Source: a virus
Lineage: Duplodnaviria > Caudoviricetes
Virus record (IMG/VR): IMGVR_UViG_3300044541_000063
Span: 1 to 64,000 of that record
Direction: 5' to 3' (one strand)
DNA: 64,000 nucleotides
Part shown: positions 80 to 19,795 of the stretch, one piece after another
Numbering within the stretch: the first letter of the stretch is position 1
How the letters are laid out: every line of letters begins with the position of its first letter
Notes under the pieces: generated by a model
What the model saw: only the letters and a program-made list of their open reading frames with translations
Databases searched by the model: none
Told to the model about the DNA's origin: nothing
Position numbers and translations under genes: made by a program

Positions 80-108
80 GCTGACTCCATCTGTTAGCTG
101 GCCGACGC

Positions 109-312: not shown

Positions 313-341
313 TTTACTTCGCCCCGGTCTTGGCGCAGCCT
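313..341 (+). promoter_or_regulatory. Putative sigma70-type phage promoter
   Basis: TTTACT-TCGCC..(N17)-CAGCCT; one of six plus-strand copies of the motif. Confidence 0.6.
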
Positions 342-368
342 TGGCGGTTCTGGACAGGAGACACCGAC

Positions 369-992: not shown

Positions 993-998
993 GAACAC

Positions 999-5599: not shown

Positions 5600-5916
5600 G
5601 CATGAAGGACCTCTGGAGACCGATCGCAGAGCTGACCGTCGAGGAGCGATACGACACCGACTTTCTGCTGCGCGCGCCCGAGCTCGTAGACGGTGACTGC
5701 AACCTGCACGGCGTCGCGCCCGGCTACTTCCAGGACGACCGCGACAGGCCGGCGCTCGGCGGTGACGACAAGAAGGACTACGGCGGCTGGATGGCCGCCA
5801 AGTGGAACATGACCAACGACGAGTGGTACGACACGCCGGTGACACCGACCCACTACTGCAGAATCGAGGGACCGCAGCTGTTCACGGCCAAGGAGCTGGA
5901 GGCCGTTCGTGACTGA
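5596..5916 (+). CDS. Hypothetical protein (WRPI...PTH. DUF551-like pattern)
   Basis: N-terminal WRPI and C-terminal PTHY typical of small phage proteins. Confidence 0.65.
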   Translation: MSMKDLWRPIAELTVEERYDTDFLLRAPELVDGDCNLHGVAPGYFQDDRDRPALGGDDKKDYGGWMAAKWNMTNDEWYDTPVTPTHYCRIEGPQLFTAKELEAVRD

Positions 5917-7411
5917 GATCGTACTCGGGCCGCCCGGCACCGGCAAGACGACCACGCTCGTTGGCGTGGTGCGCGACGAGCTGGAGCGTGGCGTGGCGAT
6001 GGACAAGATCGGCTACGTCAGCTTCACGCGCCGGGCGGCGCACGAGGCGATCGAGCGCGCCACTGGCGTGCTCAAGAAGAGCAAGAAAGACTTTCCGTAC
6101 TTCAGCACGCTGCACTCGCTGTGCTTTCGTCAGCTGGGACTGAGCAGGTCAGACGTGCTCGAGGGCAGCCGTCTGCGAGCCTTCGCAGACTGGGCGGAAG
6201 TGTCGCTGTCTGGCCGCGTCAGCGAGGACGGAAACTGGACCGGCTACGACGAGGGCGACCGAATTCTGTTCATGGAGAACGTGGCGCGCGTGCGCGGCGA
6301 CTCGCTCGCCAGAGCGTACCACGAGTTCGACGACGACAACCTGCCGTGGACGGAGGTCGACCGAGTCTCCAGGTCGCTGGCGAAGTTCAAGGCCGACAAC
6401 GGCCTGTACGACTTCACCGACATGCTGCACGAGTTCACCTGCAACAGTGCCACGGTGCCGCTTGAGGTGCTGCTGGTGGACGAGGCGCAGGACCTCAGCT
6501 GGCTGCAGTGGCGGGTCGTACGCAAGCTCGCGGAGGGCTGCCGCCGCGTGGTGGTAGCGGGCGACGACGATCAGGCCATCTACCGCTGGGCGGGCGCCGA
6601 GGCCGACCACCTCATCGACATGACCGGCGACGCTCGCGTGCTGGGCCAGTCGTACCGCGTCCCCCCGGCCGTGGCGACGCTGGCCAACGCGCTGATCGGT
6701 CGGATAGCGCACCGCCGCCCCAAGATCTGGGAGCCGAAGCCGGGGGAGTCTGGCGAGGTGCAGCACGCCGGCGACTTCCGACACGTGAGTGTGGACGACG
6801 GGCAGACTCTCATCCTCACGCGAAACAACTACGCGGCCGACGAGTACGTGTGCCCCGAGCTGCGCGGGCGAGGCATCATCTATGAGCGGCACGGCCGCAC
6901 CAGTATCAACGAGAAGCTCTACAACTCGGCGCGCGCCTGGACTCGACTGATGGCCGGCGAGAAGATATTCGCCACTGAGGCGGCGCACGTGTACGACCAG
7001 ATGTCTGGTCTGTCGCAGGACGCGAAGGCCGCGGTGCAGCGGGCGGCTAGCGACGTTCAGTACTCCTACGAGGAGCTGGTCAGTTACGGCGGTCTGCTGA
7101 CGCAGCGTCAGCCGTGGTTCGACGCTCTCGATCGCGCCAAGATCGAGGACCGCGAGTACATTCGCGCGGCGCTGGCGCGCGGCGACAAGCCGAGCGAGCG
7201 CCCGCGCGTGGTGGTGTCGACGGTGCACGGGTCGAAGGGCGCCGAGGCCGACCACGTGGTCGTGCTGAAGGACATGGCCAAGAGAACGCACTTGGAGATG
7301 CAGAAGAATCCAGACGACGAGGTCAGAGTCTGGTATGTCGCGGTCACGAGGGCCAAGCGGCGATTGACCATCGTGGAGTCGCAGACGCCGCAGGAGTGTC
7401 CATGGATATGA
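5909..7411 (+). CDS. SF1 (UvrD/Rep-like) DNA helicase
   Basis: GPPGTGKTT, DEAQD, GDDDQAIY, STVHGSKGAE, YVAVTRA. Confidence 0.95.
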   Translation: MTEIVLGPPGTGKTTTLVGVVRDELERGVAMDKIGYVSFTRRAAHEAIERATGVLKKSKKDFPYFSTLHSLCFRQLGLSRSDVLEGSRLRAFADWAEVSLSGRVSEDGNWTGYDEGDRILFMENVARVRGDSLARAYHEFDDDNLPWTEVDRVSRSLAKFKADNGLYDFTDMLHEFTCNSATVPLEVLLVDEAQDLSWLQWRVVRKLAEGCRRVVVAGDDDQAIYRWAGAEADHLIDMTGDARVLGQSYRVPPAVATLANALIGRIAHRRPKIWEPKPGESGEVQHAGDFRHVSVDDGQTLILTRNNYAADEYVCPELRGRGIIYERHGRTSINEKLYNSARAWTRLMAGEKIFATEAAHVYDQMSGLSQDAKAAVQRAASDVQYSYEELVSYGGLLTQRQPWFDALDRAKIEDREYIRAALARGDKPSERPRVVVSTVHGSKGAEADHVVVLKDMAKRTHLEMQKNPDDEVRVWYVAVTRAKRRLTIVESQTPQECPWI

Positions 7412-8244: not shown

Positions 8245-8693
8245 TGGACGAGCTGCTCAAGAAGAAGCTGGCCGAGTGGCGCAAGGTTGCCGGCCTGCTC
8301 TACGCAGAAATCGCCGCCGTCATCGATGGCGGCGAGCCTCTGACGAGGCGACGAATGGCCACGTGGCAGAACGCGCACATCGTGGCCGCCCTCAACATCG
8401 GACTGACACTGGAGAAGACCTATGAGGATCGCGGTAGTGGACACGGAGACGACGGGAATGAGCGACCAGGACCAGGTCGTGGAGGTGGGGATCGTGAGCT
8501 GGCGGTGGCCGGCGGAGTTCGAGCCGGACGACGCGTGGTCGAGTCTGGTCAGGCCGACCTGCCCGGTCTCGATGGGAGCCAGGGCCGTGCACCACATAAG
8601 CGACAGCGAGTTGAACGACAGCCTGACGATGCAGGCGCTGCTCCAGCAAAGAGGCCTGCCGGAGCTGGGCGTGGGATCCGGAGACATCGCTGA
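8244..8693 (+). CDS. Hypothetical protein (3' part overlaps exonuclease)
   Basis: Start overlaps upstream stop; first ~60 aa look coding. Confidence 0.35.
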   Translation: MDELLKKKLAEWRKVAGLLYAEIAAVIDGGEPLTRRRMATWQNAHIVAALNIGLTLEKTYEDRGSGHGDDGNERPGPGRGGGDRELAVAGGVRAGRRVVESGQADLPGLDGSQGRAPHKRQRVERQPDDAGAAPAKRPAGAGRGIRRHR

Positions 8694-9198
8694 GGAGGAC
8701 AACGACTACCTCGACGAGGAGGTCGTGATGGTCGCGCACAACTTGGCCTTCGACCGAAAGATGCTGGTGCAGTCCGGCCTCCTCGAGCACCGACTTCCCA
8801 AGAAGCAGGTCTGCACGTGGCAGTGCGCCAAGCACCTGTATCCAGACTCCGAGGACGGCTACTCCAATCAGGTGCTGCGCTACTATCTGGGACTCGTGGT
8901 GCCGCAGCTCACCACGCTGCCGCCGCACCGCGCTCTCCCGGACGCTCTGGTGACGGCCGCTCTGGTGCAGCACATGCTGATGTCCAAGACGCCCGACGAG
9001 CTCGTGAGACTGACCACGACGCCGGTCAATCTCGCTCTCAAGAAGGTGAAGTTCGGCAAGTACAAGGGCATGCTCTGGAAGGACCTGCCGAGCGACTACC
9101 TCGACTGGATCATTCGGCAGGTCGACTTCGACGAGGACGGGAGGCACACGGCGCGCGTCGTGCGGTCCGGGCGTCGTCAACCTTTACTTCAACCGTAA
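8422..9198 (+). CDS. DEDDh 3'-5' exonuclease (ExoX/DnaQ-like)
   Basis: VVDTETTG, AHNLAFD, HRALPDA, C-terminal FGKYKG..W.DLPSDYL.W. Confidence 0.93.
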   Translation: MRIAVVDTETTGMSDQDQVVEVGIVSWRWPAEFEPDDAWSSLVRPTCPVSMGARAVHHISDSELNDSLTMQALLQQRGLPELGVGSGDIAEEDNDYLDEEVVMVAHNLAFDRKMLVQSGLLEHRLPKKQVCTWQCAKHLYPDSEDGYSNQVLRYYLGLVVPQLTTLPPHRALPDALVTAALVQHMLMSKTPDELVRLTTTPVNLALKKVKFGKYKGMLWKDLPSDYLDWIIRQVDFDEDGRHTARVVRSGRRQPLLQP

Positions 9199-9211: not shown

Positions 9212-9326
9212 GCAGCCGTACCACTGGTTCCTGCTCGGCATGATGACGGCGCTGACACCGTCGCTGCTCGTGCTGGCGCTGCTGCTGCGGAGGAGCAACA
9301 CCGATGATCAACATGGCCGGGACTAA
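9210..9326 (+). CDS. Small hydrophobic peptide (doubtful)
   Basis: 38 aa with one TM-like segment; overlaps the putative -10 element. Confidence 0.3.
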   Translation: MQPYHWFLLGMMTALTPSLLVLALLLRRSNTDDQHGRD

Positions 9327-10305
9327 GAGGTTCTTCAAGTTCTGCCGCGAGCGTCACAGCATCTTCCTCCGCCGCGAGGCCGGGCTGCCGCGCGAGCAGT
9401 GGACGAAGGACCCGATCCTCTCGCGGTACAAGTTCACCAACGTGTACCGCGAGCTGGACCGCACGACGGCGTGGTTTCGGCACTTCGTGCGCGGGCCGCT
9501 GCGCGACAAGCCCGAGGTGATGCTGGCCACCGTACTCTTCCGAATGTTCAACAGGATCGAGGTCGGCGAGGCCATCTTCCTTCAGCCGTGCCTGCCGGGC
9601 GGGCCGGGCGAGCCGTCCATGACTGCGTTCGAGGAGTACGCGGCCGGGGCCGGCGTCAAGGCGCTCAAGCACTCTATTCTAAAGTACGTCGGGAAGACGG
9701 GACCGTACGCTACCGGAGCGTACATCATCAGCTCGCCGCCCGGTTTCAAGAAGATAGACGGCATCTTGAAGGTCGTCGACGACTTCCACAAGCGCAAGTG
9801 CGAGAACGAGCACTGCGGATACGAGGACTGGCACTGCGTCGCCAAGCACCTGATCGCAGAGCCAGAGAGACACAGCATGGAGCGCGTCTGGAACTGGCTA
9901 CGCGAGTTCGACTACCTCGGGAATTTCCACTCGTACGAGATAGCCTGCGACCTGCGCTACACGAAACTCCTGGAGGACGCGCCCGACAAGCTCACGTGGT
10001 GCTCCCCCGGTCCCGGCGCGCGCCGGGGGATGAACCGGATAGATGGTGCCGACGTGGACCGACGAGTACCCGTGGACGATCTGGTCAAGTCCATCGAGGG
10101 TCTGCTCGTTGCGTCGAGCTCACCTGGTCACTGGCCGCAACCGCGCGGCAGCGACTGGGGCGACTACTATCGACACTGGCTGCGTCCAGTCGAGGAGCAG
10201 TGGCCGGCGTGGGAGATGCGCGAGGTAGAGCACTCGCTGTGCGAGTTCGACAAGTACGAGCGCGTGCGCCACGGCGAGGGACGGCCGCGAGGAGTCTATC
10301 GATGA
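9304..10305 (+). CDS. aGPT-PPlase clade 1 / 5-hmdU DNA kinase-like helical protein
   Basis: ERHSIFLRR..G..W T.DPIL..YKFTNVYRELDRTT, GNFHSYEIACDL, GPGARRG; next to a dUMP hydroxymethylase pathway. Confidence 0.85.
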   Translation: MINMAGTKRFFKFCRERHSIFLRREAGLPREQWTKDPILSRYKFTNVYRELDRTTAWFRHFVRGPLRDKPEVMLATVLFRMFNRIEVGEAIFLQPCLPGGPGEPSMTAFEEYAAGAGVKALKHSILKYVGKTGPYATGAYIISSPPGFKKIDGILKVVDDFHKRKCENEHCGYEDWHCVAKHLIAEPERHSMERVWNWLREFDYLGNFHSYEIACDLRYTKLLEDAPDKLTWCSPGPGARRGMNRIDGADVDRRVPVDDLVKSIEGLLVASSSPGHWPQPRGSDWGDYYRHWLRPVEEQWPAWEMREVEHSLCEFDKYERVRHGEGRPRGVYR

Positions 10306-10451
10306 TTCGCCCGATTAAGGCACTGTCGAGCGTTTTCAAGTGGATCGACTGCAAGCTCACCCATCGCAGATGGTGGACGCGCACGCCGGTCTACCACAGC
10401 TACGACTATCGGTGCGGCATGTGCGGCCGCAAGTGGACAGTGGAGGACTGA
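10302..10451 (+). CDS. Small Cys-containing protein
   Basis: ATGA overlap; CxLxH...CxxCG pattern. Confidence 0.45.
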   Translation: MIRPIKALSSVFKWIDCKLTHRRWWTRTPVYHSYDYRCGMCGRKWTVED

Positions 10452-10452
10452 C

Positions 10453-11298
10453 ATGAAAGAGACTCTCATATGCGTGCCGTCGTCTGGGCGCGAGTGCCGT
10501 CAGATCACGCTGCGGCATCTGCGCAAGTTCAAGCTTCTCAGCAGGACCGCAGTCTGCGTGCCGGCAGCGCAGGCACGGCGCTACGTCGTCGAGCTCGGCG
10601 AGGACCTCGTCGTCGCCGTACCAGACGACGTGATCGGCATCGCGGCCACGCGCGTCTGGATACTGACCAAGTACGCGCGCGAGGAGGGCGCCAAGCGAGT
10701 TCTCATGATCGACGACGACATGGACTTCTGCTATCGCCCAGACGTAAAGCAACAGAAACTCGAGATCGTCGAGACCCAGGACCGGATGCTGAACATGCTG
10801 GGCTGGCTCGACCGGTGGATGGACGACGGCTTCATTCACGTCGGCGTCTCGGCTCGGCAGGGGAACAACAACAAGTACATCGGCGACAACGGCGAGTACG
10901 GACTGCACGCCTATCGCGACGCCACGCGAATGATGAATATGTACCAGTACGACGTCGAGGCGCTGCGAAAGCTGCCGATCGAGTGGGGCCGGCTGCCCGT
11001 GATGGAGGACTTCGACCTGACGCTGCAGCTGCTGCGGATGGGCAAGCCGAATCGCGTGTTCTTCGAGTACTGCTGGAATCAGCGCGACTCTGGCGCCACG
11101 GGCGGGTGCAGCAAGTATCGCACCGCCGAGATGCAGGAGCAGGCGGCGCGCACGCTGGCTCAGCTGCATCCCGGCTTCGTCAAGCTCGTCGATAAGGAGA
11201 GCAAGAGCACGTCGACCAGCTGGAAGGACATGAAGAAGAGGGTCGACGTGATCGTGTCCTGGCGCAAGGCACTCGACAGCGCGAAGGTGGCGTCATGA
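10453..11298 (+). CDS. GT-A fold glycosyltransferase, TAGT/GREB1-like (DNA base glycosyltransferase candidate)
   Basis: ICVPSSGR, LMIDDD (DxD), EDFDLTLQLL..G, GGCS.YR, WRKAL. Confidence 0.85.
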   Translation: MKETLICVPSSGRECRQITLRHLRKFKLLSRTAVCVPAAQARRYVVELGEDLVVAVPDDVIGIAATRVWILTKYAREEGAKRVLMIDDDMDFCYRPDVKQQKLEIVETQDRMLNMLGWLDRWMDDGFIHVGVSARQGNNNKYIGDNGEYGLHAYRDATRMMNMYQYDVEALRKLPIEWGRLPVMEDFDLTLQLLRMGKPNRVFFEYCWNQRDSGATGGCSKYRTAEMQEQAARTLAQLHPGFVKLVDKESKSTSTSWKDMKKRVDVIVSWRKALDSAKVAS

Positions 11299-12305
11299 GC
11301 GTCGCACTGTTCTTCATGTATCGCAGCTTCGGCGGCGGGACCACCAGCTACACGGTGCATCTGTTCGAGGGGATGCGCCGCGCCGGCCTGAACCCCAAGA
11401 TATACCGGGTCAAGGAGCGCGGTGAGGAGGTGGAGCGGCCGTTCTCCAAGTACGACGGCGTGACGTACCGCAACGTGGACCCGGCAGAGGCCCTGAAGAT
11501 CGTCCGGCGCACGCCGTCGCTGATGACCGCGCCGTGCAACTCGAAGTTTTTGCCGTTCGACCCTGACATCATCGGCAAGATGATGAGGGCCGGCATGCGC
11601 GTGACCGTGCACGACCCGAACGAGTTCGAGATCTACGACCACCTGGAGTGGGACAAGAAGTCCTTCGTGCCGTTCTGCATCAGGCCGTCGATGAAGCAGT
11701 TCTTCCCGAAGGCCATCTTCGTGCCTCACCCGTATGTGCGCGAGTACCAGACCGAGGAGTATGCCTACAACGAGCGGCCGCACTTGGCAGTCAGCGTGGC
11801 GCGGGTCACGTTCGTGAAGCGCACGCACCTGATCCTCGAGGCGAACGCGAAACTACCCGAGAAGTCTCGGGTCGTGCTTCGCGGCGCAGAGAATCGCCTG
11901 TACACGAGGTTCAAGGTTCAGAAGCTGTTTCCCAAGTTCAAGCAGGGACGCAGCGGCTTTCCGATGGTCTGGGGTGCCAGCGCGCGCGAGTGCGCGAAGG
12001 GTCACTACGCCGTCGACTTCACGTGGTTTCCGGACGACGGTGGCGGGTCGCAGTACTCTTCGCTCGAGGCGTGGGACGCCGGCGCCGTCAACGTCATTCA
12101 CGAGGACTGGCTGCGGTACAAGGGCGAGATGGTCGCCGGCAAGAACTGCCTCGCGGTGAACGGTGCCGATGGTCTAGCGAAACTTCTGAGTCGCCCAGAC
12201 ACGGCGTCGACTCGCCACGAGATAGTCGACGCCGGCTACGCGGCCCTGAAGGCGCACGACCCGGTGAGAGTGGCGAGGGCGTATCACAGGGAGTTGACCA
12301 AGTGA
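11295..12305 (+). CDS. GT-B fold glycosyltransferase
   Basis: N-terminal GGGTTSYT.HL, SVARV..VKR, GGGSQYSSLEAWDAG, GKNCLAV. Confidence 0.75.
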   Translation: MSVALFFMYRSFGGGTTSYTVHLFEGMRRAGLNPKIYRVKERGEEVERPFSKYDGVTYRNVDPAEALKIVRRTPSLMTAPCNSKFLPFDPDIIGKMMRAGMRVTVHDPNEFEIYDHLEWDKKSFVPFCIRPSMKQFFPKAIFVPHPYVREYQTEEYAYNERPHLAVSVARVTFVKRTHLILEANAKLPEKSRVVLRGAENRLYTRFKVQKLFPKFKQGRSGFPMVWGASARECAKGHYAVDFTWFPDDGGGSQYSSLEAWDAGAVNVIHEDWLRYKGEMVAGKNCLAVNGADGLAKLLSRPDTASTRHEIVDAGYAALKAHDPVRVARAYHRELTK

Positions 12306-12475
12306 GCAGGGAGCGCGTCATCACGTTTCGCGGCGAGGATCACACTCTGTGCATCACCGACGCGGAGGGAAACTGGGTCGTCTACCGTGGCGGAGACAGA
12401 CACGAGGTCTCGGACCTCACCGAAGAAGAAATCGACTGGATCAACAACTACGTCCACGACTGGAGAACAGACTAA
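12302..12475 (+). CDS. Small acidic hypothetical protein
   Basis: GTGA overlap upstream, TAATG overlap downstream. Confidence 0.5.
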   Translation: MSRERVITFRGEDHTLCITDAEGNWVVYRGGDRHEVSDLTEEEIDWINNYVHDWRTD

Positions 12476-13509
12476 TGAAGAAGGGAACACTCGAACCGGT
12501 CGTTGGCCGCAAGCACAAGACGAAGGGCAACTATCGCGTCCAGGAGCAGCCGTACGCGGTGCAGATCGAGCTCGTCGAGGGCTGCAATCTGCGATGCACG
12601 TTCTGCGGCCTGAGCGGCATACGCGGCAAGGACAACGACTACAAGTACATGGACGTCGCCACGCTGTCGGTGCTGTGCGACGAGATGATTCGCGCCGGCT
12701 GGAATCCTCGCATCGAGTTCGCCATGCACGGCGAGCCGTCGATGCATCCAGATCCGGCGAAGATGGTCGGCGTGGTTCGCGCGGCGTCCCCCGGCTGGTC
12801 CATCATGATGACCAGTAACGGGGGAGGGCTGCTGCGGAAGCCCGGACCCGCTCATCACGTCAACGCGCTGTTCGCGGCCGGCCTCAACGTGCTGGCTCTC
12901 GACGACTACGAGGGCGCGAACATCGTCGGAAAGATTAGGACGGCGCTGGAGCAAGACAGGGCGGGCGGCGAGCCGTTCTGTAACGTCTACGAGTATCCGC
13001 GCGATCCGAGTGGCAATCCTCACACGCGCCGGCGTCCAGGTGTTCACGATCTGGTGTTCATCCAGGACATCGGCAAGGCCAAGCAGGGCACGCACAGTCA
13101 CCTGAACAATCACGCCGGCAGCGGTGCGCCGCCGCTCGAGGAGCCTCTCGTGGCGCGGTGCGCCAAACCGTTCCGCGAGCTCTCGGTGCGCTACGACGGC
13201 AAGGTGGCAGTGTGCTGCAACGACTGGCGCGGCCTGTACTACTGCGGAAGCGTGGTGGACGACGGCCTCGAGGCGGTGTGGAACGGACCGGCCATGGGCG
13301 CGGCGCGGCAGATGCTGTATCACAGCAACAGAAACTTCGGGCCGTGCACCGGCTGCGACGCCAGGAGCGATCGCGTCGGGCTGCTGCCGGACAAGCACGG
13401 GCGAGAGAAGCTGCCGCACCCGAACGCGCGCACTGCGGTGGACGTCGCGGCGGCGCTGACGAGCCGTCCTCCGCTGGCGACGCCGGTTCTGAGACCGTGG
13501 GAGACGTAG
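12475..13509 (+). CDS. Radical SAM protein with SPASM/twitch domain
   Basis: CNLRCTFC; GEPSMHP; C-terminal CAKPF..DGKVAVCCNDW..CTGC. Confidence 0.93.
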   Translation: MKKGTLEPVVGRKHKTKGNYRVQEQPYAVQIELVEGCNLRCTFCGLSGIRGKDNDYKYMDVATLSVLCDEMIRAGWNPRIEFAMHGEPSMHPDPAKMVGVVRAASPGWSIMMTSNGGGLLRKPGPAHHVNALFAAGLNVLALDDYEGANIVGKIRTALEQDRAGGEPFCNVYEYPRDPSGNPHTRRRPGVHDLVFIQDIGKAKQGTHSHLNNHAGSGAPPLEEPLVARCAKPFRELSVRYDGKVAVCCNDWRGLYYCGSVVDDGLEAVWNGPAMGAARQMLYHSNRNFGPCTGCDARSDRVGLLPDKHGREKLPHPNARTAVDVAAALTSRPPLATPVLRPWET

Positions 13510-13512
13510 TGC

Positions 13513-13541
13513 TTTACTTCGCCGCGACGTTGAGCGAGAAT
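13513..13541 (+). promoter_or_regulatory. Putative promoter
   Basis: TTTACT-TCGCC..(N17)-GAGAAT in an intergenic gap. Confidence 0.6.
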
Positions 13542-13669
13542 GCGCACTAACCGGCACTGCGTACCGTCTGTCGGCTAGGACGGGATACGTTGTGGCCGGG
13601 CGAGGCCGGGCACCGAGCCGGGTGGCCGGCCTCGCGCTTATATGGTCGTCGGAGAACCGCGAGGACATC

Positions 13670-14284
13670 GTGAGAGCAGTACTCCTGGCAATGAACAATC
13701 CGTTGTCGCCGGACCCGCGACACGCTCTGTACCCGTATCCTCCGGGCTGCACCGGGTACAGACTCCTGAAGCTGCTGCAGCGGCGGCGCCCAGACGTCAC
13801 GAGGTCGCTCTATCTGCGGGCGTTCGAGCGCATGAATATCCTAAGCACAAGAAACTGGGACAAGAAAGAGGCTAAGCGTGCCGGCGTCACGATGCGCGAC
13901 CTGCTGGTGCACCAGTATCGCGGTCGCACCGTGCTGGTGCTGGGCAACGAGCCGCGCAACGCGCTGAGGCTGCCGCCGCTGCTGGTGTATCCGCAGGAGA
14001 TCGACGGCGTCACGTGGCGCCAGCTGCCTCACCCGTCGGGGCGGTGCCACTGGTACAACGACCCGATGAATGCCGAACTGGCGGCTCTGCTGCTCGAGTC
14101 ACTCTATCAACAGGGAGCTGAGACACATGATACTGTCAGCGCAGACGATACGAAAGGCAGCGCGCCTGGGACTGGTGCTGCCGTTCAGGGAGCGGTTCAA
14201 GGACAAGCTGGGAAACAGCGGCGGTCTGGGACCGTGCGGGTACGACGTGACGCTGGACAAGGAGCTCAGGATCAAGCCCGGTGA
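13670..14284 (+). CDS. Uracil-DNA-glycosylase-superfamily-like protein
   Basis: GAGGA RBS before GTG; LAMNNP, TVLVLG and LPHPSGR..WYNDP resemble UDG-fold motifs. The 3' end overlaps dcd. Confidence 0.55.
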   Translation: MRAVLLAMNNPLSPDPRHALYPYPPGCTGYRLLKLLQRRRPDVTRSLYLRAFERMNILSTRNWDKKEAKRAGVTMRDLLVHQYRGRTVLVLGNEPRNALRLPPLLVYPQEIDGVTWRQLPHPSGRCHWYNDPMNAELAALLLESLYQQGAETHDTVSADDTKGSAPGTGAAVQGAVQGQAGKQRRSGTVRVRRDAGQGAQDQAR

Positions 14285-14642
14285 CTTCGTGCTGGCGGCG
14301 ACCAACGAACATTTTGTAGTTCCGGTGGACGTGATGTTCGTGGTGCACGACAAGAGCACCTGGATCCGTCAGGGCGTTGCCGTGCACAACACCGTCGCCG
14401 AGCCGGGCTGGCGCGGCTTCCTTACGCTGGAGATTTCGCACCACGGCACGAAGGAGATCGTCATACCGGCCGGCTGCTCGATCGCTCAGGTAGTGTTTCA
14501 CCTGCTCGACAGCAACACCGAGGAGCCGTACGACGGAAAGTACCAGGACCAGCCGGCCGGGCCGCAGCCGGCCAAGTTCTACGGCGACGACGAAGACGAG
14601 AAGGGCGGCGACAACGACGAGAAGATAGAGGGCACCGCGTGA
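14127..14642 (+). CDS. dcd: dCTP deaminase
   Basis: MILSAQTI, GYDVTL, HDKSTWIRQG, AEPGWRGFLTLE, IAQVVF, YDGKYQDQ. Confidence 0.92.
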   Translation: MILSAQTIRKAARLGLVLPFRERFKDKLGNSGGLGPCGYDVTLDKELRIKPGDFVLAATNEHFVVPVDVMFVVHDKSTWIRQGVAVHNTVAEPGWRGFLTLEISHHGTKEIVIPAGCSIAQVVFHLLDSNTEEPYDGKYQDQPAGPQPAKFYGDDEDEKGGDNDEKIEGTA

Positions 14643-14917
14643 GCACCGGCAACTCGCCGCTGCGAGTCCTCAAGATGCAGGCCGACGGCATGGCCAAGCT
14701 GCTCAAGGCGATAAGCCGCGGCGAGAGAGTGATGGACGATCGAGGCGGCAAGATCGCCGCCTCGCGTGCGAGCGGCATGTTCAGGTTCGGCATCGCGATG
14801 GACGACAAGCTCGTCATGGTGGAGATCACCTGGAAGACGATCGAGGCGACCTCCGAGGTAGCACTGGCAGAGTACATACTGAAGCAGACCAAGAACGCAA
14901 GAGACACTCACCACTAG
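14639..14917 (+). CDS. Hypothetical protein
   Basis: GTGA overlap; 92 aa. Confidence 0.55.
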   Translation: MSTGNSPLRVLKMQADGMAKLLKAISRGERVMDDRGGKIAASRASGMFRFGIAMDDKLVMVEITWKTIEATSEVALAEYILKQTKNARDTHH

Positions 14918-14929
14918 AAGGAGGCCACT

Positions 14930-16183
14930 ATGCTGAAGGGAATGACGGTGCGAAACGCGTGCGAGGCCCTGCCGCAGGGACTCAGGCTGCTGCTGGAGTT
15001 CGGTCGCAAGGAGCGCAGCCGGGCCGGCGACGTCCTGGTTCTCCCCGGCCCGCTGGTCACTGAGACCACGCACCCGACGGAGCGCGTGCTGTTCAGCGCG
15101 GTGCGCGACGCGAACCCGTTTTTCCACCTGTGCGAGGCGATGTGGATGCTGGCAGGGCAGCAGGACGCGCGACCGCTCGACGCGTTCGTCGGCGACTTCT
15201 CGAAACGGTTCGCCGAGCCTGACGGCAACATGCACGGAGCATACGGCTTCAGGTGGCGTCACCATTTCATGTTCGATCAGCTGCACAAGATCGTGGAGAT
15301 GCTGGTCGCAGAGCCCACGACGCGGCAGGCGGTGCTCGCCATGTGGGACCCGCACGAGCTGACGGCTCCGGTGGACTTTGGTAACGGCAACGTGGGGGAG
15401 GAGTTGATCGGTGGAGCAGACCTGACAGGAGTCTGGAAGGACCGACCGTGCAACACTCACGTGTATTTTCGCGTGCGGTACGAGAAGGGACCGCAGCACT
15501 ACAACTCGTCGACCGCGGACCCGGAGTGGACGAGGCACCTCGACATGACGGTGTGCTGCCGCAGCAACGACTTGATCTGGGGTGCGCACGGTGCCAACGC
15601 GGTGCACTTCAGCGTGCTCCAGGAGTACGTCGCGGCGCGTACTGGCTGCGAGGTCGGAGTGATGTATCAGTTGTCGAACAACTATCACGCGTACACGGCG
15701 TTCCTGGACGTGCTGAAGCAGAGGGCGGCGGCAACCGGCAAGTATTTCTCTCTGAACGTGATGCTCATGGACAATCGGTACGAGGAGAGGGACAGTATCC
15801 GCTCGCTGCCGAAGGTGTCGTCCGAGCCGATGTTCAATCGTCCGGACTACATCGACGAGGACGTGAAGATGTTCTGGCGGTGGTTCATCGAGTACAATCA
15901 GGAGACCGAGTCGCCGCACTACAAGAACGACTGGTTCGCCACCACTCTCGAGATGATGATGATGGCGCACTACTTTCACAAGAAGGGCGCGAGGGCCGAG
16001 GCCATGCACTGCGCCCGAGAGGTCGACGCGCAGGACTGGAGCGTGGCCGCCGTCGAGTGGCTCCAGAGGCGCAACAAGGAGAAGGCAAGTGAGAAGAGAC
16101 CAGATGATGCAGTCCAGAGCGCTGGCGCTGCGAGTGAAGAGGTACCACACGTGGCCGATGCTGCATCCACAGACGGTGGGTGA
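14930..16183 (+). CDS. Thymidylate-synthase-family protein, probable dUMP hydroxymethylase
   Basis: ANPFFHL.EA.WMLAG, GAYG.RW, TRQAVL.MWDP, DRPCN, RSND..WGAHGAN..HFS, NNYHAY. Asn at the base-specificity position indicates dUMP. Confidence 0.9.
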   Translation: MLKGMTVRNACEALPQGLRLLLEFGRKERSRAGDVLVLPGPLVTETTHPTERVLFSAVRDANPFFHLCEAMWMLAGQQDARPLDAFVGDFSKRFAEPDGNMHGAYGFRWRHHFMFDQLHKIVEMLVAEPTTRQAVLAMWDPHELTAPVDFGNGNVGEELIGGADLTGVWKDRPCNTHVYFRVRYEKGPQHYNSSTADPEWTRHLDMTVCCRSNDLIWGAHGANAVHFSVLQEYVAARTGCEVGVMYQLSNNYHAYTAFLDVLKQRAAATGKYFSLNVMLMDNRYEERDSIRSLPKVSSEPMFNRPDYIDEDVKMFWRWFIEYNQETESPHYKNDWFATTLEMMMMAHYFHKKGARAEAMHCAREVDAQDWSVAAVEWLQRRNKEKASEKRPDDAVQSAGAASEEVPHVADAASTDGG

Positions 16184-16586
16184 GCACAGCGCGCGCGTCG
16201 CTACGCTGTACGTGGAGATCTTCGGCTTGCCGCGCGCCGAGGTTCTCTACTACATTCTGCACCACGACAGCGGCGAGCTGACGGCCGGCGACACACCGTT
16301 TCCGGCGAAGCAGCTGTCTCCTGGTTTCAAGAAGGAGTACGAGAAGGTCGAAGCGCTTGGCTACGAGCGACTCGGCGTGGTGCTTCCGGACCTGGCCGAC
16401 TGGGAGTTTCGGCGAGTCAAGGTCGCCGACCTCATGGAGATGTGGGAGACCGGCTGGCACGAGATGCGACTGGGAAACGGTTACGCGCGGCCCATCGTAG
16501 ACGACACCGCAGAGGCGGCCTTCAACGTAGTCTCTGCGGAAGACGCACCAAAGTTGAACGAGTGGTTTCAGATAAATGGAGTATAG
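16104..16586 (+). CDS. HD-domain 5'-deoxynucleotide phosphohydrolase (YfbR-like)
   Basis: VKRYHT..QTVGEHS..LHHD..E..GDTPFP..VK.AD..E. Confidence 0.85.
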   Translation: MMQSRALALRVKRYHTWPMLHPQTVGEHSARVATLYVEIFGLPRAEVLYYILHHDSGELTAGDTPFPAKQLSPGFKKEYEKVEALGYERLGVVLPDLADWEFRRVKVADLMEMWETGWHEMRLGNGYARPIVDDTAEAAFNVVSAEDAPKLNEWFQINGV

Positions 16587-17727
16587 TGTCATGAGGCCGC
16601 ACGACATGAAGCACTTGGAGCAGCTGTATCCAGTCGCTATCGGCGACGTGATGCACCTGAAGATGAAGGAGGCCACGTACCAGGGCAGCTGGAAGCGCAG
16701 CGGCGGGCGCAGCGCGTGGTTCATGCTTCGCCGCAAGATCGACAGGCTGCTGGAGATGATGAAGAGACCCGAAGCTCCAGACGGGTTCAATCCAGACGAT
16801 CACCGCGACTCAAAGGTCAACTTGAACAGCAGCGAGGTGAACTTCCTTCTTGACTCGTACGCGGCTGAGAACGTCTTCGCCATGATCCGAAAGGACCCGA
16901 CTGGCAAGGACGGCAGCGTGCTCGCCGAGGTGCGAGACCTCAGGCGATACTTGCTGCTCGTCGAGGCCGAGATGGTCTCGCGCGGCGTCGTCGACGAGCC
17001 TGACACGCGACAGGGCCACGACCTCTACTCGCGCGTGGCGCACGCCACGGGTGTGCACCGCAACACCGTGAAAGAGATTCTGCTGTGCGCGGCGTACAGC
17101 GGGCAGGACACGTTCAACGCAACTACGGGCAACCCACCGCAGCCAGACTCCGGAGACATCGGCGACGCGATGAGCGATCGTTGCGTACCTCGCTTCGCTT
17201 CTCGCTTCGATCCGATGCCAGACCCGACGCCGCCGACCGCCGCGCAGCGCTTCACTTCGTCTCCGACGCAGGTCGGCAGCGACACGCATCCGTTCGGCGA
17301 GAACGCGCCGTGGCTGGTCGGCAAGAGCTGCCTGAGCACCGCGGCTGAGACCGACTCGGAGAGAGCAGCACTCGACGGCCTGTACGCCGACCACGGCGCC
17401 GGCTGGATGAAGCTGGTCGAGCACCTGACGGAGTCGGAGCGATACACGCTGACGATGGTCGTCATGCAGAACACGTCGGTGGCGTCGACGCTCGTCGCCG
17501 AGGCACTGAAGTGCTACGTGCCGGTGACCGGCGCCAAGATGCACGTGATCGACCTCACGCGCGCGCCGAGGGACTACCGCAGCGCTTGGCCGACTCTGCA
17601 CATGGAGTACAACGGCAAGGAGCGCAGCCTCTCGCCGTCGTGGACGCACGACCTGTACGCGTGGGACGAGGCGCAGACCAAGTGGCGAATCAAGCCGGGC
17701 TTCGAGTACTTCACCAACAAGGAGTAG
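16576..17727 (+). CDS. MazG/Nmad1-like all-alpha nucleotide pyrophosphatase with unknown C-terminal extension
   Basis: K..TYQGSWKR.G..L.RKIDRL ... EVRDLRRYLLL. Confidence 0.65.
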   Translation: MEYSVMRPHDMKHLEQLYPVAIGDVMHLKMKEATYQGSWKRSGGRSAWFMLRRKIDRLLEMMKRPEAPDGFNPDDHRDSKVNLNSSEVNFLLDSYAAENVFAMIRKDPTGKDGSVLAEVRDLRRYLLLVEAEMVSRGVVDEPDTRQGHDLYSRVAHATGVHRNTVKEILLCAAYSGQDTFNATTGNPPQPDSGDIGDAMSDRCVPRFASRFDPMPDPTPPTAAQRFTSSPTQVGSDTHPFGENAPWLVGKSCLSTAAETDSERAALDGLYADHGAGWMKLVEHLTESERYTLTMVVMQNTSVASTLVAEALKCYVPVTGAKMHVIDLTRAPRDYRSAWPTLHMEYNGKERSLSPSWTHDLYAWDEAQTKWRIKPGFEYFTNKE

Positions 17728-17731
17728 CGCG

Positions 17732-19795
17732 GTGGCGCGGCAGTCCACGAAGTACACGTACAAGAGTAAGTCTGAGAACAAGACTTACTACAACGTCGGC
17801 GGCAGCCAGCTGCCGATGTTCCTCCCCGACTCGACATGGGCGATGCCGACGGAGCTGCCAGACCTCCGTCGCGTCAAGCGCGTGGCACTCGACCGCGAGT
17901 GCAAGGACGACGGTCTCGCGATGAAGAAGGGACCGGGCTGGGCGACCGGTGCCGGTCACGTGTGCGGCTCGTCCTACGCGTGGCGCGAGGGCGGCGCGCT
18001 GCGAAGCATCTACGTCCCGCTGACGCATCCAGACAGCGAGAACTTCGACGCGGCGCAGCTGGCGCAGTGGGAGCGGGACCTCGACGCGGCCGGCGTCGAG
18101 TTCGTCATGCAGAACGCGCCCTACGACGTGGGATGGGGCAACAGGGACCTCAAGGTACCGTGCCCCAAGAAGGTGCACGACACCACGTGCATGGCGTACA
18201 TGGTCGACGAGAACAGGCTCTCGTACCAGCTGGACCAGCTGTGCCGGTGGAAAGGGCTGCCCGGCAAGGACGAGGACCTCCTGCGCGAGGCTGCGGCTTG
18301 CTACGGCTGGCAAGGCGACGAGGTAAAGGCGCACGTCCACCAGCTGCCGGCGCGCTACGTGGGGCAGTACGCCGAGACTGACGCGGTGCGCACGCTGCAG
18401 CTGGCCGAGCTCATCGAGCCTGACCTGCACGCCCAGGAGGTCTACGAGGCGTACCAGCTGGAGATGGACCTGCTCCCGGTGGTCCACGAGATGCGACGGC
18501 GCGGCATACGCGTGAACGTCGACCGAGCCGTCCAGGTTCAGGCGATGTTCTACGCCAGGGCGGAGGCCGCGTTCAAGGAGCTTCGCGAGAAACTGTGCAC
18601 CACCGCCATCGGCATCGACGAGCTGCGCGACAACCAGTGGCTCGACGACATGTTCACGGCCCAGAAGGTGAGAATACCGCGCGACCACAAGGGCAAGGGC
18701 TCGTTCGAGAAGACGTGGATGCAAGTCTACGATCACTGGCTCCCCCGGCTGTGTGTCAAGGCCAAGTCGTACTACGAGGCGGCCGACAAGTTCATCGGCA
18801 ACTACATGCTGGGATACGCGCACAACGGTCGCATTCACGCGTCGGTGAATCAGTTCAAGTCCGAGGACGGGTACGGCACCAAGACGTATCGGTTCTCGTA
18901 CTCCGACCCGCCGCTGCAGCAGTGGCCGTCGCGCGACGAGCTGGCCAGTACGGAGATAAGAGGCTGCCTCGAGGCGGAGCCGGGGGATAAGTGGGGCAAG
19001 AATGACTACAGCCAGCAGGAGTATCGGCTGATCGTGAGCTACGCCGTGATGAACGGCCTCGACCGCGCGCAGGAGGCGGCCGACCAGTACATCAACGACC
19101 CGAAGACCGACTTTCACAGCATGGTCGCCGAGATGACTGGCCTCGACCGCAAGCCTGCCAAGGACACGAACTTCGCCAAGTCGTACGGCGCCGGCATACC
19201 GAAGTTTGCGACCATGATCAACAAGCCGCTGGCCGAGGCCGAGGCGATCATGAAGCAGTACGATGAGAAGATGCCGTTCAACGCTCAGCTGAACCAGAAG
19301 TGCCAGAAGCTCGCCGAGCAGCGCGGATACATGGTGCTGCTCGACAAGGCGCGTATTCACTTCGACAACTGGGAGCCGACGTGGTTGTCAAAGGACGAGC
19401 GCTCTGCAGGCTACGCACCGGGTAGTCCATATAAGATGAATCCCTGCGGTCTCGAGGAGGCGCGCGCCCGGCTGCAGCAGCAGGGCCATCCGTGGTTTCA
19501 CAAGCGTCTGCGGCGCGCCGACTGCCGCAAGGCGATGAACTCGCTCATTCAGGGCGGCGCGGCGCGACAGACGAAGCTGGCCATGCGCGCCATCTACCGC
19601 GAGGGGCAGGTTCCTCTTCTTCAGATGCACGACGAGCTGAACTTCAGCTTCGCACGCGAGAAGGACGCCAAGATGGTGGCCACCGTCATGCGCGACGTCG
19701 TCAAGCTGAAGGTTCCGATGATGGTCGACGCCGGCTACGGTCCCTCGTGGGGCGCGGCGAAGAAGTCGTGGAGGGAGGCGAAGGCCGCCAAGTAG
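17732..19795 (+). CDS. Family A DNA polymerase with 3'-5' exonuclease
   Basis: ExoI ALDRE, ExoII NAPYD, ExoIII YAETD; motif A DYSQQEYR, motif B RKPAKDTNFAKSYG, motif C QMHDEL. Confidence 0.97.
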   Translation: MARQSTKYTYKSKSENKTYYNVGGSQLPMFLPDSTWAMPTELPDLRRVKRVALDRECKDDGLAMKKGPGWATGAGHVCGSSYAWREGGALRSIYVPLTHPDSENFDAAQLAQWERDLDAAGVEFVMQNAPYDVGWGNRDLKVPCPKKVHDTTCMAYMVDENRLSYQLDQLCRWKGLPGKDEDLLREAAACYGWQGDEVKAHVHQLPARYVGQYAETDAVRTLQLAELIEPDLHAQEVYEAYQLEMDLLPVVHEMRRRGIRVNVDRAVQVQAMFYARAEAAFKELREKLCTTAIGIDELRDNQWLDDMFTAQKVRIPRDHKGKGSFEKTWMQVYDHWLPRLCVKAKSYYEAADKFIGNYMLGYAHNGRIHASVNQFKSEDGYGTKTYRFSYSDPPLQQWPSRDELASTEIRGCLEAEPGDKWGKNDYSQQEYRLIVSYAVMNGLDRAQEAADQYINDPKTDFHSMVAEMTGLDRKPAKDTNFAKSYGAGIPKFATMINKPLAEAEAIMKQYDEKMPFNAQLNQKCQKLAEQRGYMVLLDKARIHFDNWEPTWLSKDERSAGYAPGSPYKMNPCGLEEARARLQQQGHPWFHKRLRRADCRKAMNSLIQGGAARQTKLAMRAIYREGQVPLLQMHDELNFSFAREKDAKMVATVMRDVVKLKVPMMVDAGYGPSWGAAKKSWREAKAAK

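Follow-up and report, generated by a model that had tools for sequence, protein, structure and literature searches.

Which base modification would be made by a phage that has neither the kinase nor the transferase of the known thymine-hypermodifying phages? The thymidine hypermodification pathways of M6/YuA, PaMx11, ViI, PhiW-14, SP10 and SH-Ab 15599 have been described (Lee et al. 2018, 2021; PMC5889632, PMC8989533; PMC13458397), of which M6/YuA and PaMx11 are Pseudomonas phages and ViI is a Salmonella phage. The characterised phages of this type all use DNA kinase or AADT (amino-acid:DNA transferase) genes, whereas neither is present in the phage analysed here. The window, a stretch of 64,000 nucleotides, comes from an uncultured phage whose complete genome is 75.8 kb (about 76 kb) with terminal repeats.

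Gene block

Significant profile matches, and for the GT-B its fold, showed that the predicted modification genes form one real block, all on the + strand, containing HMUDK_hel, a TAGT GT-A, a GT-B, a radical SAM enzyme (rSAM), dCTP deaminase, a thymidylate synthase (TS) homolog and an HD 5'-nucleotidase. Downstream of the block lie a protein with a MazG-like N-domain and then PolA. The features are:

8422..9198, +, RNase T-type 3'-5' exonuclease (PF00929, E 6e-13)
9304..10305, +, HMUDK_hel / aGPT-Pplase clade 1 (PF18723, E 4e-44, profile positions 5-278 of 281)
10453..11298, +, predicted TAGT-type GT-A DNA glycosyltransferase (PF20691, E 5e-19; phrog_842, E 5e-46)
11295..12305, +, GT-B, GT4-like (AF2 model, pLDDT 92.7, pTM 0.91)
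12475..13509, +, radical SAM enzyme with truncated SPASM ('twitch'-like) C-terminal domain (PF04055 and PF13186)
13691..14284, +, conserved protein (phrog_12275, unknown function, E 9e-22)
14127..14642, +, dCTP deaminase, Dcd / dUTPase superfamily (PF22769, E 3e-20; phrog_1663, E 3e-46)
14639..14917, +, small ORF, 92 aa (GC3 0.86)
14930..16183, +, thymidylate-synthase homolog (phrog_5131, E 7e-86)
16104..16586, +, HD-domain 5'-deoxynucleotidase, YfbR-like (PF12917, E 2e-8; phrog_6047, E 7e-24)
16576..17727, +, two-domain protein with MazG-like N-domain (AF2 model, pLDDT 83.7)
17732..19795, +, family A DNA polymerase, PolA (PF00476, E 7e-36)

The exonuclease is a conserved neighbour upstream of the cluster, with an equivalent position in locus L004, and no role in the modification chemistry is claimed for it. 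Pfam and PHROG profile searches with the 92-aa ORF were empty. The protein of 13691..14284 had been called UDG-like, which the searches did not confirm: it matched phrog_12275 and carries an HPSG motif, while PDB and Pfam searches gave no match. The last 158 nt of its gene overlap dcd in a different frame, and it shares full-length identity of 67-70% with the versions in loci L004, L006 and L007. Many ORFs of the genome carry no annotation.

Enzymes of nucleotide metabolism

The dcd, TS-family and HD hydrolase genes of the original prediction were all confirmed by profile matches. The dCTP deaminase scored 85 bits against TIGR02274, just below the cut-off of 92.8. The TS homolog and PaMx11 gp51 share 43% identity and the KDxPCN catalytic-Cys motif. 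According to the specificity rules by residue position (PMC13326640), the Asn at the ThyA N177 position indicates uracil and not cytosine, and the Asp at the D169 position indicates that it is not a 5hoC synthase. The enzyme is therefore predicted to be a dUMP hydroxymethylase, a class that cannot be separated with certainty from true thymidylate synthase by sequence alone. Since no TET/JBP or C5-methyltransferase was found in the complete genome, the TS homolog is the sole visible source of a hydroxymethyl-pyrimidine.

The HD nucleotidase is a homolog of PaMx11 gp52 (tblastn, E 2e-8). The MazG-like call for 16576..17727 stood at the level of fold, as neither Foldseek nor sequence searches against Pfam and the PDB gave a match. 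Residues of about 11-141 form an N-domain with the all-alpha fold of MazG-like NTP pyrophosphohydrolases (VIA, Z 7.5-5.7; all of the top 11 matches of the MazG, HisE or DCTPP1 type), followed by a disordered linker and an alpha/beta C-domain (247-372). The protein has at least 274 homolog clusters.

HMUDK_hel and the absent kinase

The product of 9304..10305, 42% identical to PaMx11 gp50, had been labelled 5-hmdU kinase-like, and this label was wrong. It matched the helical, HhH-glycosylase-like domain family only, without a kinase domain. In M6, PaMx11 and YuA a separate P-loop protein, encoded beside aGPT-Pplase1, acts as the kinase (PMC8989533; also our sequence searches). As to the role of HMUDK_hel itself, M6 gp55 was dispensable in vitro (PMC8989533). 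Six-frame Pfam, tblastn and Walker-A scans of the complete 75.8-kb genome found no P-loop 5-hmdU kinase, and its P-loop proteins were helicases and terminase only (Walker-A scan). Since the aGPT-Pplase1 is not a kinase and none is encoded elsewhere in the genome, the pathway is kinase-less and not one of kinase plus sugars.

AADT, PLP enzyme and acetyltransferase genes, earlier noted as missing from the window, are missing from the whole genome as well. An AADT outside the window had been named beforehand as evidence against the original prediction; six-frame Pfam and tblastn searches of the complete genome found no AADT (Pplase2). Likewise, neither a FAD-lyase nor an SPL-type rSAM partner is present, and the phage encodes no sugar-nucleotide genes.

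Glycosyltransferases and radical SAM enzyme

Both glycosyltransferase calls were upheld, the GT-A (TAGT-like) by PF20691, phrog_842 and an invariant DxD motif (DDD, D87-D89), and the GT-B by its fold. The TAGT stop codon overlaps the start of the GT-B (ATGA). The GT-B had no Pfam or PHROG match, and Foldseek with the AF2 model gave GT4/GT-B enzymes in the PDB (up to E 3e-11), with the best TM of 0.72 (TMq) to T4 alpha-glucosyltransferase (AGT, 1y6f). An Atlas feature search with the GT-B led to PF11440 AGT clusters, although there is no sequence-level PF11440 membership. The about 110 homolog clusters of the GT-B are all metagenomic. In L072 and L079, its family members are most likely two neighbouring ORFs matching PF00534, which the tally does not name. 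According to PDB titles, T4 AGT was crystallised on HMU-containing DNA; the substrate on which relatives of TAGT and AGT have been characterised is 5hmC, not 5-hmdU.

The rSAM-SPASM assignment was also correct (longest ORF from 12349; likely start Met at 12475). Its conserved cysteines are C37, C41 and C44 together with C229, C247, C248, C257, C291 and C294; the C-terminal part has only 5-6. The NCBIfam matches were to twitch and SPASM subfamilies, every one below its cut-off. The best PDB match was BtrN (E 1e-4, over about 90 residues), a similarity at superfamily level. BtrN, a twitch-domain rSAM dehydrogenase of butirosin biosynthesis, is a carbohydrate-type alcohol dehydrogenase with one auxiliary cluster (PMC9012708). 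Both enzymes have CxxxCxxC, and their C-terminal domains are short and poor in Cys, as would suit a single auxiliary cluster. The BtrN substrate is a carbohydrate-like secondary alcohol, and the substrate proposed here is a sugar on DNA. The likeness is weak, and it does not discriminate between oxidation, epimerisation and C-C chemistry.

Locus surveys

Two surveys were performed, one of 80 HMUDK_hel-centred loci and one of 80 rSAM-centred loci. In the former, TAGT was found in 16 loci and kinase in 30, never together (0 among 46 informative loci; Fisher p 3e-4). AADT was accompanied by kinase in 17/17 and never occurred without it. The TS homolog was beside HMUDK_hel in 74/80. In the HMUDK_hel tree, the partner type changes at least 4 times on well-supported branches, and the window's HMUDK_hel groups with four kinase-type loci at 99% support. 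The constant pairing with a hydroxymethylase and the interchangeable partners (kinase, TAGT, methyltransferase) suggest that HMUDK_hel, whatever its partner, is an enzyme acting on 5-hmdU in DNA or a factor recognising it.

Among the 80 rSAM loci, TS was present in 72, HMUDK_hel in 66 and AADT in 0; a GT or GT candidate was present in 72 (48/51 where both flanks were at least 6 kb). Since only 3/16 TAGT loci have rSAM, whereas 72/80 rSAM loci have a GT or candidate, the rSAM looks like an optional tailoring step after the predicted glycosylation. In L015, L017 and L095 this rSAM family is accompanied by a P-loop kinase and a putative 331-aa protein, and in L092 and L093 it has no GT within 7 kb, so its substrate need not be a sugar.

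HMUDK_hel, TAGT, GT-B, rSAM and TS are kept together across phages with differing structural modules. The set had been described as unusual, which does not hold among uncultured phages, where TS, HMUDK_hel, TAGT and rSAM are a frequent module. Part of the set (TS, aGPT-Pplase1, nucleotidase and putative glucosyltransferase) has been noted in print in pelagiphages (PMC9599517). The literature search found no chemistry or measured product for any phage with the module.

Predicted pathway and alternatives

With somewhat better than even confidence, the whole block is read as a pre- and post-replicative, sugar-type thymine hypermodification pathway. By homology, Dcd would supply dUTP/dUMP and the uracil-specific, PaMx11-gp51-like TS homolog would form 5-hydroxymethyl-dUMP, which host kinases would convert to the triphosphate, while the HD nucleotidase and the MazG-like protein would lower competing dT/dU nucleotides. 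PolA would place 5-hmdU instead of T and so would need to incorporate 5-hmdUTP. The TAGT GT-A may then transfer a hexose from a host NDP-sugar to the 5-hydroxymethyl oxygen on DNA, giving a base-J-like O-glycoside, and the translationally coupled AGT-like GT-B may add a second sugar or glycosylate the remaining sites. In the weakest step, the BtrN-like rSAM might abstract hydrogen from the attached sugar, followed by oxidation or epimerisation. The product is best read as 5-hmdU carrying an O-linked, rSAM-modified sugar, possibly as a disaccharide. The original idea of a sugar-based, possibly disaccharide or rSAM-tailored hyper-T unlike the known amine modifications is thus the best-supported one, with no AADT in the whole genome, except that its clade 1 protein is not a kinase.

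An unlikely alternative is that the final base is no simple O-glycoside and that the glycosyl group would only activate or pre-position the 5-methylene carbon, as the phosphate does in M6-type phages, for rSAM, with or without HMUDK_hel, to rearrange into a C-C-linked, C-glycoside-like or radical-remodelled adduct. Parallels would be the N-C to C-C isomerisation catalysed by M6 gp53 and the SP-15-type carbon linker. The mutual exclusion of kinase and TAGT, interchangeable beside closely related HMUDK_hel, and the kinase-associated rSAM of L015, L017 and L095 fit this, as do the charged residues of HMUDK_hel invariant in 50 homologs (R17, D36, R49, E50, D52, R80, E212, D228, R241, E309, E314 and K317), a numerous set that resembles an active site. 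An rSAM isomerase acting on a thymine adduct has precedent (PMC8989533), and sugar-bearing carbon-linked thymines occur in SP-15, YerA41 and Carin-5, with unsolved biosynthesis (PMC13697223, PMC12686479). However, the rSAM showed no relationship to the isomerase of M6/YuA, a sugar alkoxide leaves poorly, 13/16 TAGT and HMUDK_hel loci lack rSAM so that the glycoside can be an end product, and the SP-15-type phages are unrelated large myoviruses with other gene sets.

Rather less probable is plain or partial 5-hmdU in DNA, with the GTs and rSAM acting on the host envelope, a phage protein or a small molecule. Most enzymes with GT-A or GT4-type GT-B folds do not act on DNA, JGI names some GT-B homologs 'glycosyltransferase involved in cell wall biosynthesis', and the DNA-glycosylating role of the GTs is a predicted function. 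Against this, the GT/rSAM genes lie inside a nucleotide-metabolism/replication operon, between HMUDK_hel and TS, an arrangement kept across unrelated phages, and by family and by fold alike the GTs match DNA glycosyltransferases best, namely TAGT and T4 AGT.

A kinase-dependent amine-type modification, using a non-homologous or host kinase with HMUDK_hel as group transferase, is very improbable. HMUDK_hel is a paralog of AADTs (PMC5889632), its G-x-F-x-x-Y-E-I-x-x-D-L motif aligned weakly with AADT GPWIGFKIADM (hhalign), and the unannotated ORFs leave room for such an enzyme, but the P-loop inventory, the missing PLP, FAD-lyase, acetyltransferase and SPL-type rSAM partners and the separation of TAGT from kinase in all informative loci argue against it. 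Least credible is an ordinary thymidylate synthase with canonical T in a nucleotide-supply operon with unrelated neighbours. The uracil-specific Asn and catalytic Cys do also occur in true TS, but the nearest characterised relatives are the PaMx11/YuA dUMP hydroxymethylase clade, three positions ahead of the catalytic Cys the enzyme shares Asp with PaMx11 gp51 where ThyA has Leu143 (rule of PMC13326640), and HMUDK_hel, known only from 5-hmdU systems, accompanies the rSAM and adjoins TS at the frequencies given above.

Comparison with known systems

The favoured sugar-type pathway shares with M6/YuA/PaMx11-type phages a dUMP hydroxymethylase, HD nucleotidase, PolA and aGPT-Pplase1 in a replication-linked operon, and the predicted order of post-replicative 5-hmdU decoration and then optional tailoring. 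It differs in having two glycosyltransferases instead of P-loop 5-HMUDK, AADT and PLP/FAD/acetyltransferase tailoring, in an rSAM of a different family from M6 gp53, and in a substituent predicted to be a sugar and not an amino-acid or polyamine derivative.

As in T-even phages (T4 alpha-/beta-GT on 5-hydroxymethylcytosine), a TS-family enzyme would make the hydroxymethyl pyrimidine before replication, and a GT-B with AGT-like fold and a GT-A (phrog_842) would then act on DNA; a disaccharide is possible, as with the beta-glucosyl-HMC alpha-glucosyltransferase of T2/T6. Unlike in T-even phages, the specificity position holds Asn in place of Asp, which predicts a base derived from uracil, the GT-B is outside PF11440 by sequence, and rSAM and HMUDK_hel are additional.

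The GT-A belongs, above cut-off, to the same Pfam family (PF20691) as the TET/5mYOX-associated TAGT. The survey of those enzymes also reported metagenomic GT-A and GT-B genes in the neighbourhood of thymidylate-synthase homologs (Burke et al. 2021, PMC8256090; Pyle et al., bioRxiv 10.1101/2023.12.21.572611). Those systems have characterised products of 5hmC only, whereas here TET and methyltransferase are lacking and the hydroxymethyl base would be pre-replicative, predicted 5-hmdU. The predicted core product, a hexose O-linked to 5-hydroxymethyluracil in DNA, is that of kinetoplastid base J (beta-D-glucosyl-hydroxymethyluracil). Base J is rare and regulatory and is made from T within DNA, by JBP oxidation and an unrelated JGT, whereas the replacement here would be pre-replicative and is likely to be extensive, and a second GT and rSAM are added. 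SP-15, YerA41 and Carin-5 (PMC13697223, PMC12686479) also have T-derived bases with sugars and encode dCTP deaminase and a TS homolog, but their thymines bear oligosaccharides on a phosphorylated carbon linker, and these large myoviruses have UDG-fused polymerases and their own sugar-nucleotide genes, none of which is found here.

In conclusion, the block most likely serves to convert thymine to 5-hydroxymethyluracil, to add one or two sugars and to remodel the product by a radical enzyme. The module is not a singleton but common, as yet uncharacterised, in uncultured phages. In this phage HMUDK_hel would work without a kinase, and a glycosyltransferase would fill the slot held by the kinase in M6-type phages.

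Genome setting and content of the gene block

The IMG/VR record, of which the window covers bases 1-64000, totals 75,818 bp, carries terminal repeats and is rated 100% complete, and the genome ends overlap by 30 bp. The GC content is 63% and the + strand carries almost all genes. The DNA of the block was compared with GenBank phages by megablast and gave no match. PolA, encoded downstream of the block (17732-19795), is at most 36% identical to that of any deposited phage, the nearest being HTVC023P-type pelagiphages, Pseudanabaena phage Pan1 and Dinoroseobacter phage R5C; judged from sequence, no cultured phage is close to this one. A scan for promoters and terminators found nothing above chance.

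Genes of the block, in window coordinates
9304-10305, + strand: HMUDK_hel (aGPT-Pplase1), PF18723, E 4e-44, 151 bits vs a cut-off of 25
10453-11298, + strand: TAGT, a GT-A glycosyltransferase, PF20691, E 5e-19, 69.6 bits vs a cut-off of 27.5; phrog_842, E 5e-46
11295-12305, + strand: GT-B glycosyltransferase, 336 aa, its start overlapping the TAGT stop
12349-13509, + strand, likely start 12475: radical SAM enzyme (rSAM) with SPASM domain, PF04055 and PF13186
13691-14284, + strand: ORF predicted as UDG-like
about 14127-14642, + strand: dCTP deaminase (Dcd), profile match
14930-16183, + strand: thymidylate synthase (TS) homolog, predicted dUMP hydroxymethylase, phrog_5131, E 7e-86
about 16104-16586, + strand: HD/YfbR-like 5'-nucleotidase, profile match
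16576-17727, + strand: 383-aa ORF, two-domain model with pLDDT 83.7

The original prediction described this block as a thymidine hypermodification cluster with an unusual enzyme set. The gene content was largely right, since profiles recovered HMUDK_hel, TAGT, rSAM/SPASM, dcd, TS and HD and a structural model recovered the GT-B, while the gene taken for a kinase was misassigned. The set is also not rare: with more than 1,300 homolog clusters in the rSAM family, the block is a frequent module with an extra GT-B.

Further genes were observed around the block. Its 5' side (window 78-1862, 2035-3639 and 4142-4810) encodes Pam3 gp33-like and gp34-like proteins, AEP-TOTE (an AEP-type primase domain) and a NUDIX hydrolase, which could take part in nucleotide-pool clearing. 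Two UvrD-type helicases lie in the early region (window 5909-7411 and 23011-24579) and an SNF2-family helicase at the far end of the genome (L008:12372-13817, - strand); L009, L010 and a 75.7-kb relative likewise have SNF2 helicases beside the cluster. A tail fibre protein of 1,161 aa (L008:870-4355, genome 62869-66354) combines a Laminin_G_3 lectin domain with a GP38 adhesin domain at its C-terminus. In a related phage (L092:3326-6940), a PolA of 1,204 aa with an intein and HNH endonuclease adjoins rSAM and dcd.

The TS homolog and the base predicted

The TS homolog is 43% identical to PaMx11 gp51, and both have KDxPCN around the catalytic Cys. Alignment to solved TS and CMP-hydroxymethylase structures placed an Asn at the ThyA N177 position. 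Asn at this position characterizes uracil-specific enzymes of the TS family, and Asp the cytosine-specific ones. At the ThyA D169 position the homolog has Asp, in an RSND motif. Since D169N marks the 5-hydroxycytosine synthases of the TS family (RB69/DLP3) (PMC13326640), the retained Asp indicates that the homolog is not such a synthase. Where ThyA has Leu143 it has Asp, and the residue here is reported to follow whether an enzyme methylates or hydroxymethylates (PMC13326640). These features, combined with the Dcd and nucleotidase genes, point by homology to 5-hmdU in place of T. No TET/JBP dioxygenase (PF12851), C5-methyltransferase (PF00145) or sugar-nucleotidyltransferase was detected in the genome.

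HMUDK_hel and the missing kinase and amino acid transferase

HMUDK_hel, earlier called aGPT-Pplase clade 1, is a helical protein that resembles HhH glycosylases and is paralogous to the amino acid:DNA transferases (AADT) (PMC5889632); it is not the kinase. In PaMx11 (gp49) and YuA (gp13), a separate 190-aa P-loop protein is encoded directly upstream of HMUDK_hel, and the AADT (PaMx11 gp46, YuA gp10) lies a few genes away. The M6 kinase and AADT are sufficient in vitro, the clade 1 protein gp55 being dispensable (PMC8989533).

Both missing enzymes were searched for in the complete genome. Neither the P-loop 5-hmdU DNA kinase (5-HMUDK, PF18748/AAA_33-like) nor the AADT (aGPT-Pplase2, PF18724) had a match at E<=10 in six frames, and tblastn with PaMx11 gp46 to gp49, including the gp49 kinase and the gp46 AADT, found nothing. 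Our kinase HMM, which detected 30 kinases in other surveyed loci, found none in this genome, and neither did an AADT HMM built from YuA gp10 and PaMx11 gp46. Walker A motifs in credible genes belonged to helicases and the terminase only; one further motif, at 7762, was discarded as non-genic, its reading frame having low GC3. For the larger ORFs that remained, those of the 11.8 kb outside the window among them, Pfam gave nothing relevant. The kinase premise of the original prediction was thus wrong, as HMUDK_hel is a helical AADT paralog and the separate P-loop kinase gene is missing from the complete genome. Its statement that AADT is missing, made for the window, was borne out genome-wide, and its sugar-based hyper-T reading was right in direction once freed of the kinase.

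Compared by hhalign with AADT profiles, HMUDK_hel gave only a 27-column, low-probability match, and sequence and profile searches against PDB were empty or spurious. The protein has 14 invariant residues, mostly charged, which look catalytic from the alignment. A predicted complex of TAGT and HMUDK_hel scored 0.00, a value that counts neither for nor against an interaction. The family comprises 3,821 representative clusters at E<=0.001, all partner types together. In the closest long relative (L004:1665-2719), HMUDK_hel is interrupted at residue 242 and continues in another frame, owing to either a frameshift or an assembly error.

Glycosyltransferases and the radical SAM enzyme

The TAGT assignment is based on a profile match above the gathering score of PF20691 and on the GT-A DxD motif, present as DDD at residues 87-89 and invariant in five homologs; unlike other settings of the family, it has no associated TET/JBP dioxygenase or 5mC methyltransferase here. 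The GT-B sequence matched nothing in Pfam, PHROG or NCBIfam, and PDB searches by sequence and profile were empty or spurious. Its AlphaFold2 model (35 homologs; pLDDT 92.7, pTM 0.91) has a GT-B fold, and Foldseek against PDB retrieved GT4-type enzymes with E down to 3e-11. The highest TM among the listed matches was to T4 alpha-glucosyltransferase (AGT; 1y6f, 1xv5 and 1y8z, TMq 0.69-0.72), and AGT clusters were likewise indicated by Atlas language-model features, in agreement with Foldseek. The fold is alike, but identity to AGT (PF11440) is only 12-13%, without family membership at the sequence level. The GT-B family has about 110 homolog clusters. Searching for related loci with a single GT-B or TAGT protein returned almost nothing, and alignment queries were needed.

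The conserved cysteines of rSAM are C37, C41 and C44 (CxxxCxxC) and, in the C-terminal part, C229-x17-C247, C248, C257 and C291-x2-C294. Five or six C-terminal cysteines are kept, vs seven in a two-cluster SPASM domain, a pattern consistent with a predicted single-cluster twitch domain. The best solved relative was BtrN (E 1e-4), a twitch-domain enzyme oxidising a carbohydrate-type secondary alcohol (PMC9012708). The glycinyl-thymine isomerase of the M6 gp53 type, an SPL-like rSAM, is unrelated to the enzyme of the block (BLASTP vs YuA gp12/M6 gp53, E 2.0), and a YuA gp12 HMM had no match in the genome.

The 383-aa and UDG-like ORFs

The 383-aa ORF, with at least 274 homolog clusters, had no Pfam or PDB sequence match, and Foldseek on the model and Atlas gave nothing usable. 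With VIA-align, the top 11 rows for the modelled N-domain were all MazG, HisE and DCTPP1 pyrophosphohydrolases, at Z 7.5-5.7, where Z below about 13 is common for helical bundles; a MazG-like all-alpha NTP pyrophosphohydrolase fold may be taken as a lead, not as proof. The ORF predicted as UDG-like matched only phrog_12275 (unknown function) and contains an LPHPSG (HPSG) motif; it had no match in Pfam, nor in PDB when searched by sequence or profile. It overlaps dcd by 158 nt in a different frame. L004, L006 and L007 share this overlap and also the protein's low-complexity tail, with 67-70% protein identity over the full length.

Conservation and co-occurrence

The whole block, including the 383-aa and UDG-like genes, is kept in the same three close relatives. 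More distant phages, among them L009 (whose tail genes resemble those of phiJL001), L010 (on a contig of 103 kb) and a contig of 75.7 kb, keep HMUDK_hel, TAGT, GT-B, rSAM and the TS homolog; some of them encode two TAGT or two GT-B proteins.

For the first survey, partners within 10 kb of HMUDK_hel homologs were identified in 80 IMG/VR loci with our own HMMs on six-frame ORFs. The TS homolog was found in 74/80 loci, the P-loop kinase in 30/80, AADT in 17/80 (with the kinase present in 17/17) and TAGT in 16/80. TAGT occurred with a kinase or AADT in 0/80 loci, and the non-overlap of TAGT and kinase gave Fisher p = 3e-4, relatedness of the loci being ignored. A quick ML tree of HMUDK_hel shows at least 4 changes of partner label on well-supported branches, and parsimony counts 9; the HMUDK_hel of the window falls in a 99%-supported clade of six, four of them kinase-type loci. 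From the counts and the tree, TS and HMUDK_hel therefore form a constant pair, and the first transferase is interchangeable, one type excluding the other. None of kinase, AADT and TAGT was present in 34/80 loci (e.g. L036, L049, L073, L080 and L089), whose common neighbours are class I SAM methyltransferases (13 ORFs) and AlkB-like 2OG-Fe(II) oxygenases (9 ORFs); HMUDK_hel may thus have a further, methyl-type class of partner, the third.

The second survey covered 80 loci around the rSAM family, again with partners within 10 kb. The TS homolog was present in 72/80, HMUDK_hel in 66/80, TAGT in 63/80, a GT-B of the window's type in 15/80 and a 331-aa candidate glycosyltransferase in 7/80. At least one of these three glycosyltransferase types occurred in 72/80 loci, and in 48/51 where both flanks reached 6 kb or more; the P-loop kinase was found in 3/80 and AADT in 0/80. 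Conversely, rSAM was present in only 3 of the 16 TAGT loci of the first survey. The asymmetry agrees with rSAM being an optional tailoring enzyme dependent on a glycosylated product.

The 331-aa protein (L015:9090-10088, L017:11156-12151; also L095, L099, L103, L104, L139, L140 and L171) is conserved, lies just upstream of rSAM and has no Pfam match. Its C-terminal PANRFYEMLSAGLPMVF resembles a GT-B nucleotide-sugar site, and hhalign of the L015/L017 protein with the GT-B family of the window gave nothing. Several of its loci also hold a P-loop 5-hmdU-type kinase, and they could represent a kinase, sugar and rSAM variant of the pathway.

Proposed pathway and comparison with known systems

The block shares with the M6/PaMx11/ViI pathway the uracil-specific TS homolog (predicted dUMP hydroxymethylase) and HMUDK_hel, but lacks the P-loop 5-hmdU kinase and AADT. 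Related gene sets have been reported: in pelagiphages, genes for TS, aGPT-Pplase1, a 5'-nucleotidase and a putative glucosyltransferase were noted close to PolA (PMC9599517), and a metagenome survey of DNA glycosyltransferases found GT-A and GT-B genes near TS homologs (10.1101/2023.12.21.572611). The sugar-bearing thymines of SP-15, YerA41 and Carin-5, phages unrelated to this one, carry the sugar on a carbon-phosphate linker (PMC13697223, PMC12686479). In the literature we found no paper identifying the product of a module of TS, HMUDK_hel, glycosyltransferase and rSAM.

We propose that T is replaced by 5-hmdU, which would be O-glycosylated without a DNA kinase. TAGT would move a hexose from a host NDP-sugar onto the hydroxymethyl oxygen, and GT-B would put on a second sugar or cover the remaining sites. 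HMUDK_hel would serve as a 5-hmdU-directed factor or enzyme. Oxidation or epimerisation of the sugar by rSAM would be the weakest step. Alternatively, rSAM would make a rearranged, non-O-glycosidic base. We regard this as quite improbable and keep it in consideration because rSAM occurs together with the kinase and the 331-aa protein in L015, L017 and L095, and no glycosyltransferase is seen within 7 kb of it in two metagenome loci (L092 and L093).

A bolder proposal is that HMUDK_hel is a partner-agnostic enzyme of 5-hmdU DNA, working with a kinase, a glycosyltransferase or a methyltransferase, and that rSAM converts the sugar adduct into a glycosyl-thymine, keto, epimerised or C-C-linked, built on a disaccharide. 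We consider it unlikely on balance, though worth stating; if true, it would be a class of DNA hypermodification without a described example, and the first rSAM acting on a DNA-bound sugar.

To our knowledge, all thymine hypermodifications with solved biosynthesis depend on a DNA kinase together with a transferase for amino acids or polyamines. The module would be a second, kinase-free route to sugar-decorated thymine in bacterial viruses, and it is abundant, with the rSAM clusters counted here and more than 3,800 HMUDK_hel clusters over all partner types. For 5hmU labelling, DNA glycosyltransferases specific for 5-hmdU would make useful tools, as would an rSAM that modifies DNA-bound sugar. 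The either-or of kinase and glycosyltransferase beside HMUDK_hel gives a handle on the role of aGPT-Pplase1, a puzzle since 2013. DNA modified in this way ought to be refractory to restriction enzymes and probably also to CRISPR nucleases. Type IV systems and glycosylases could act against it, and it may bias metagenomic sequencing.
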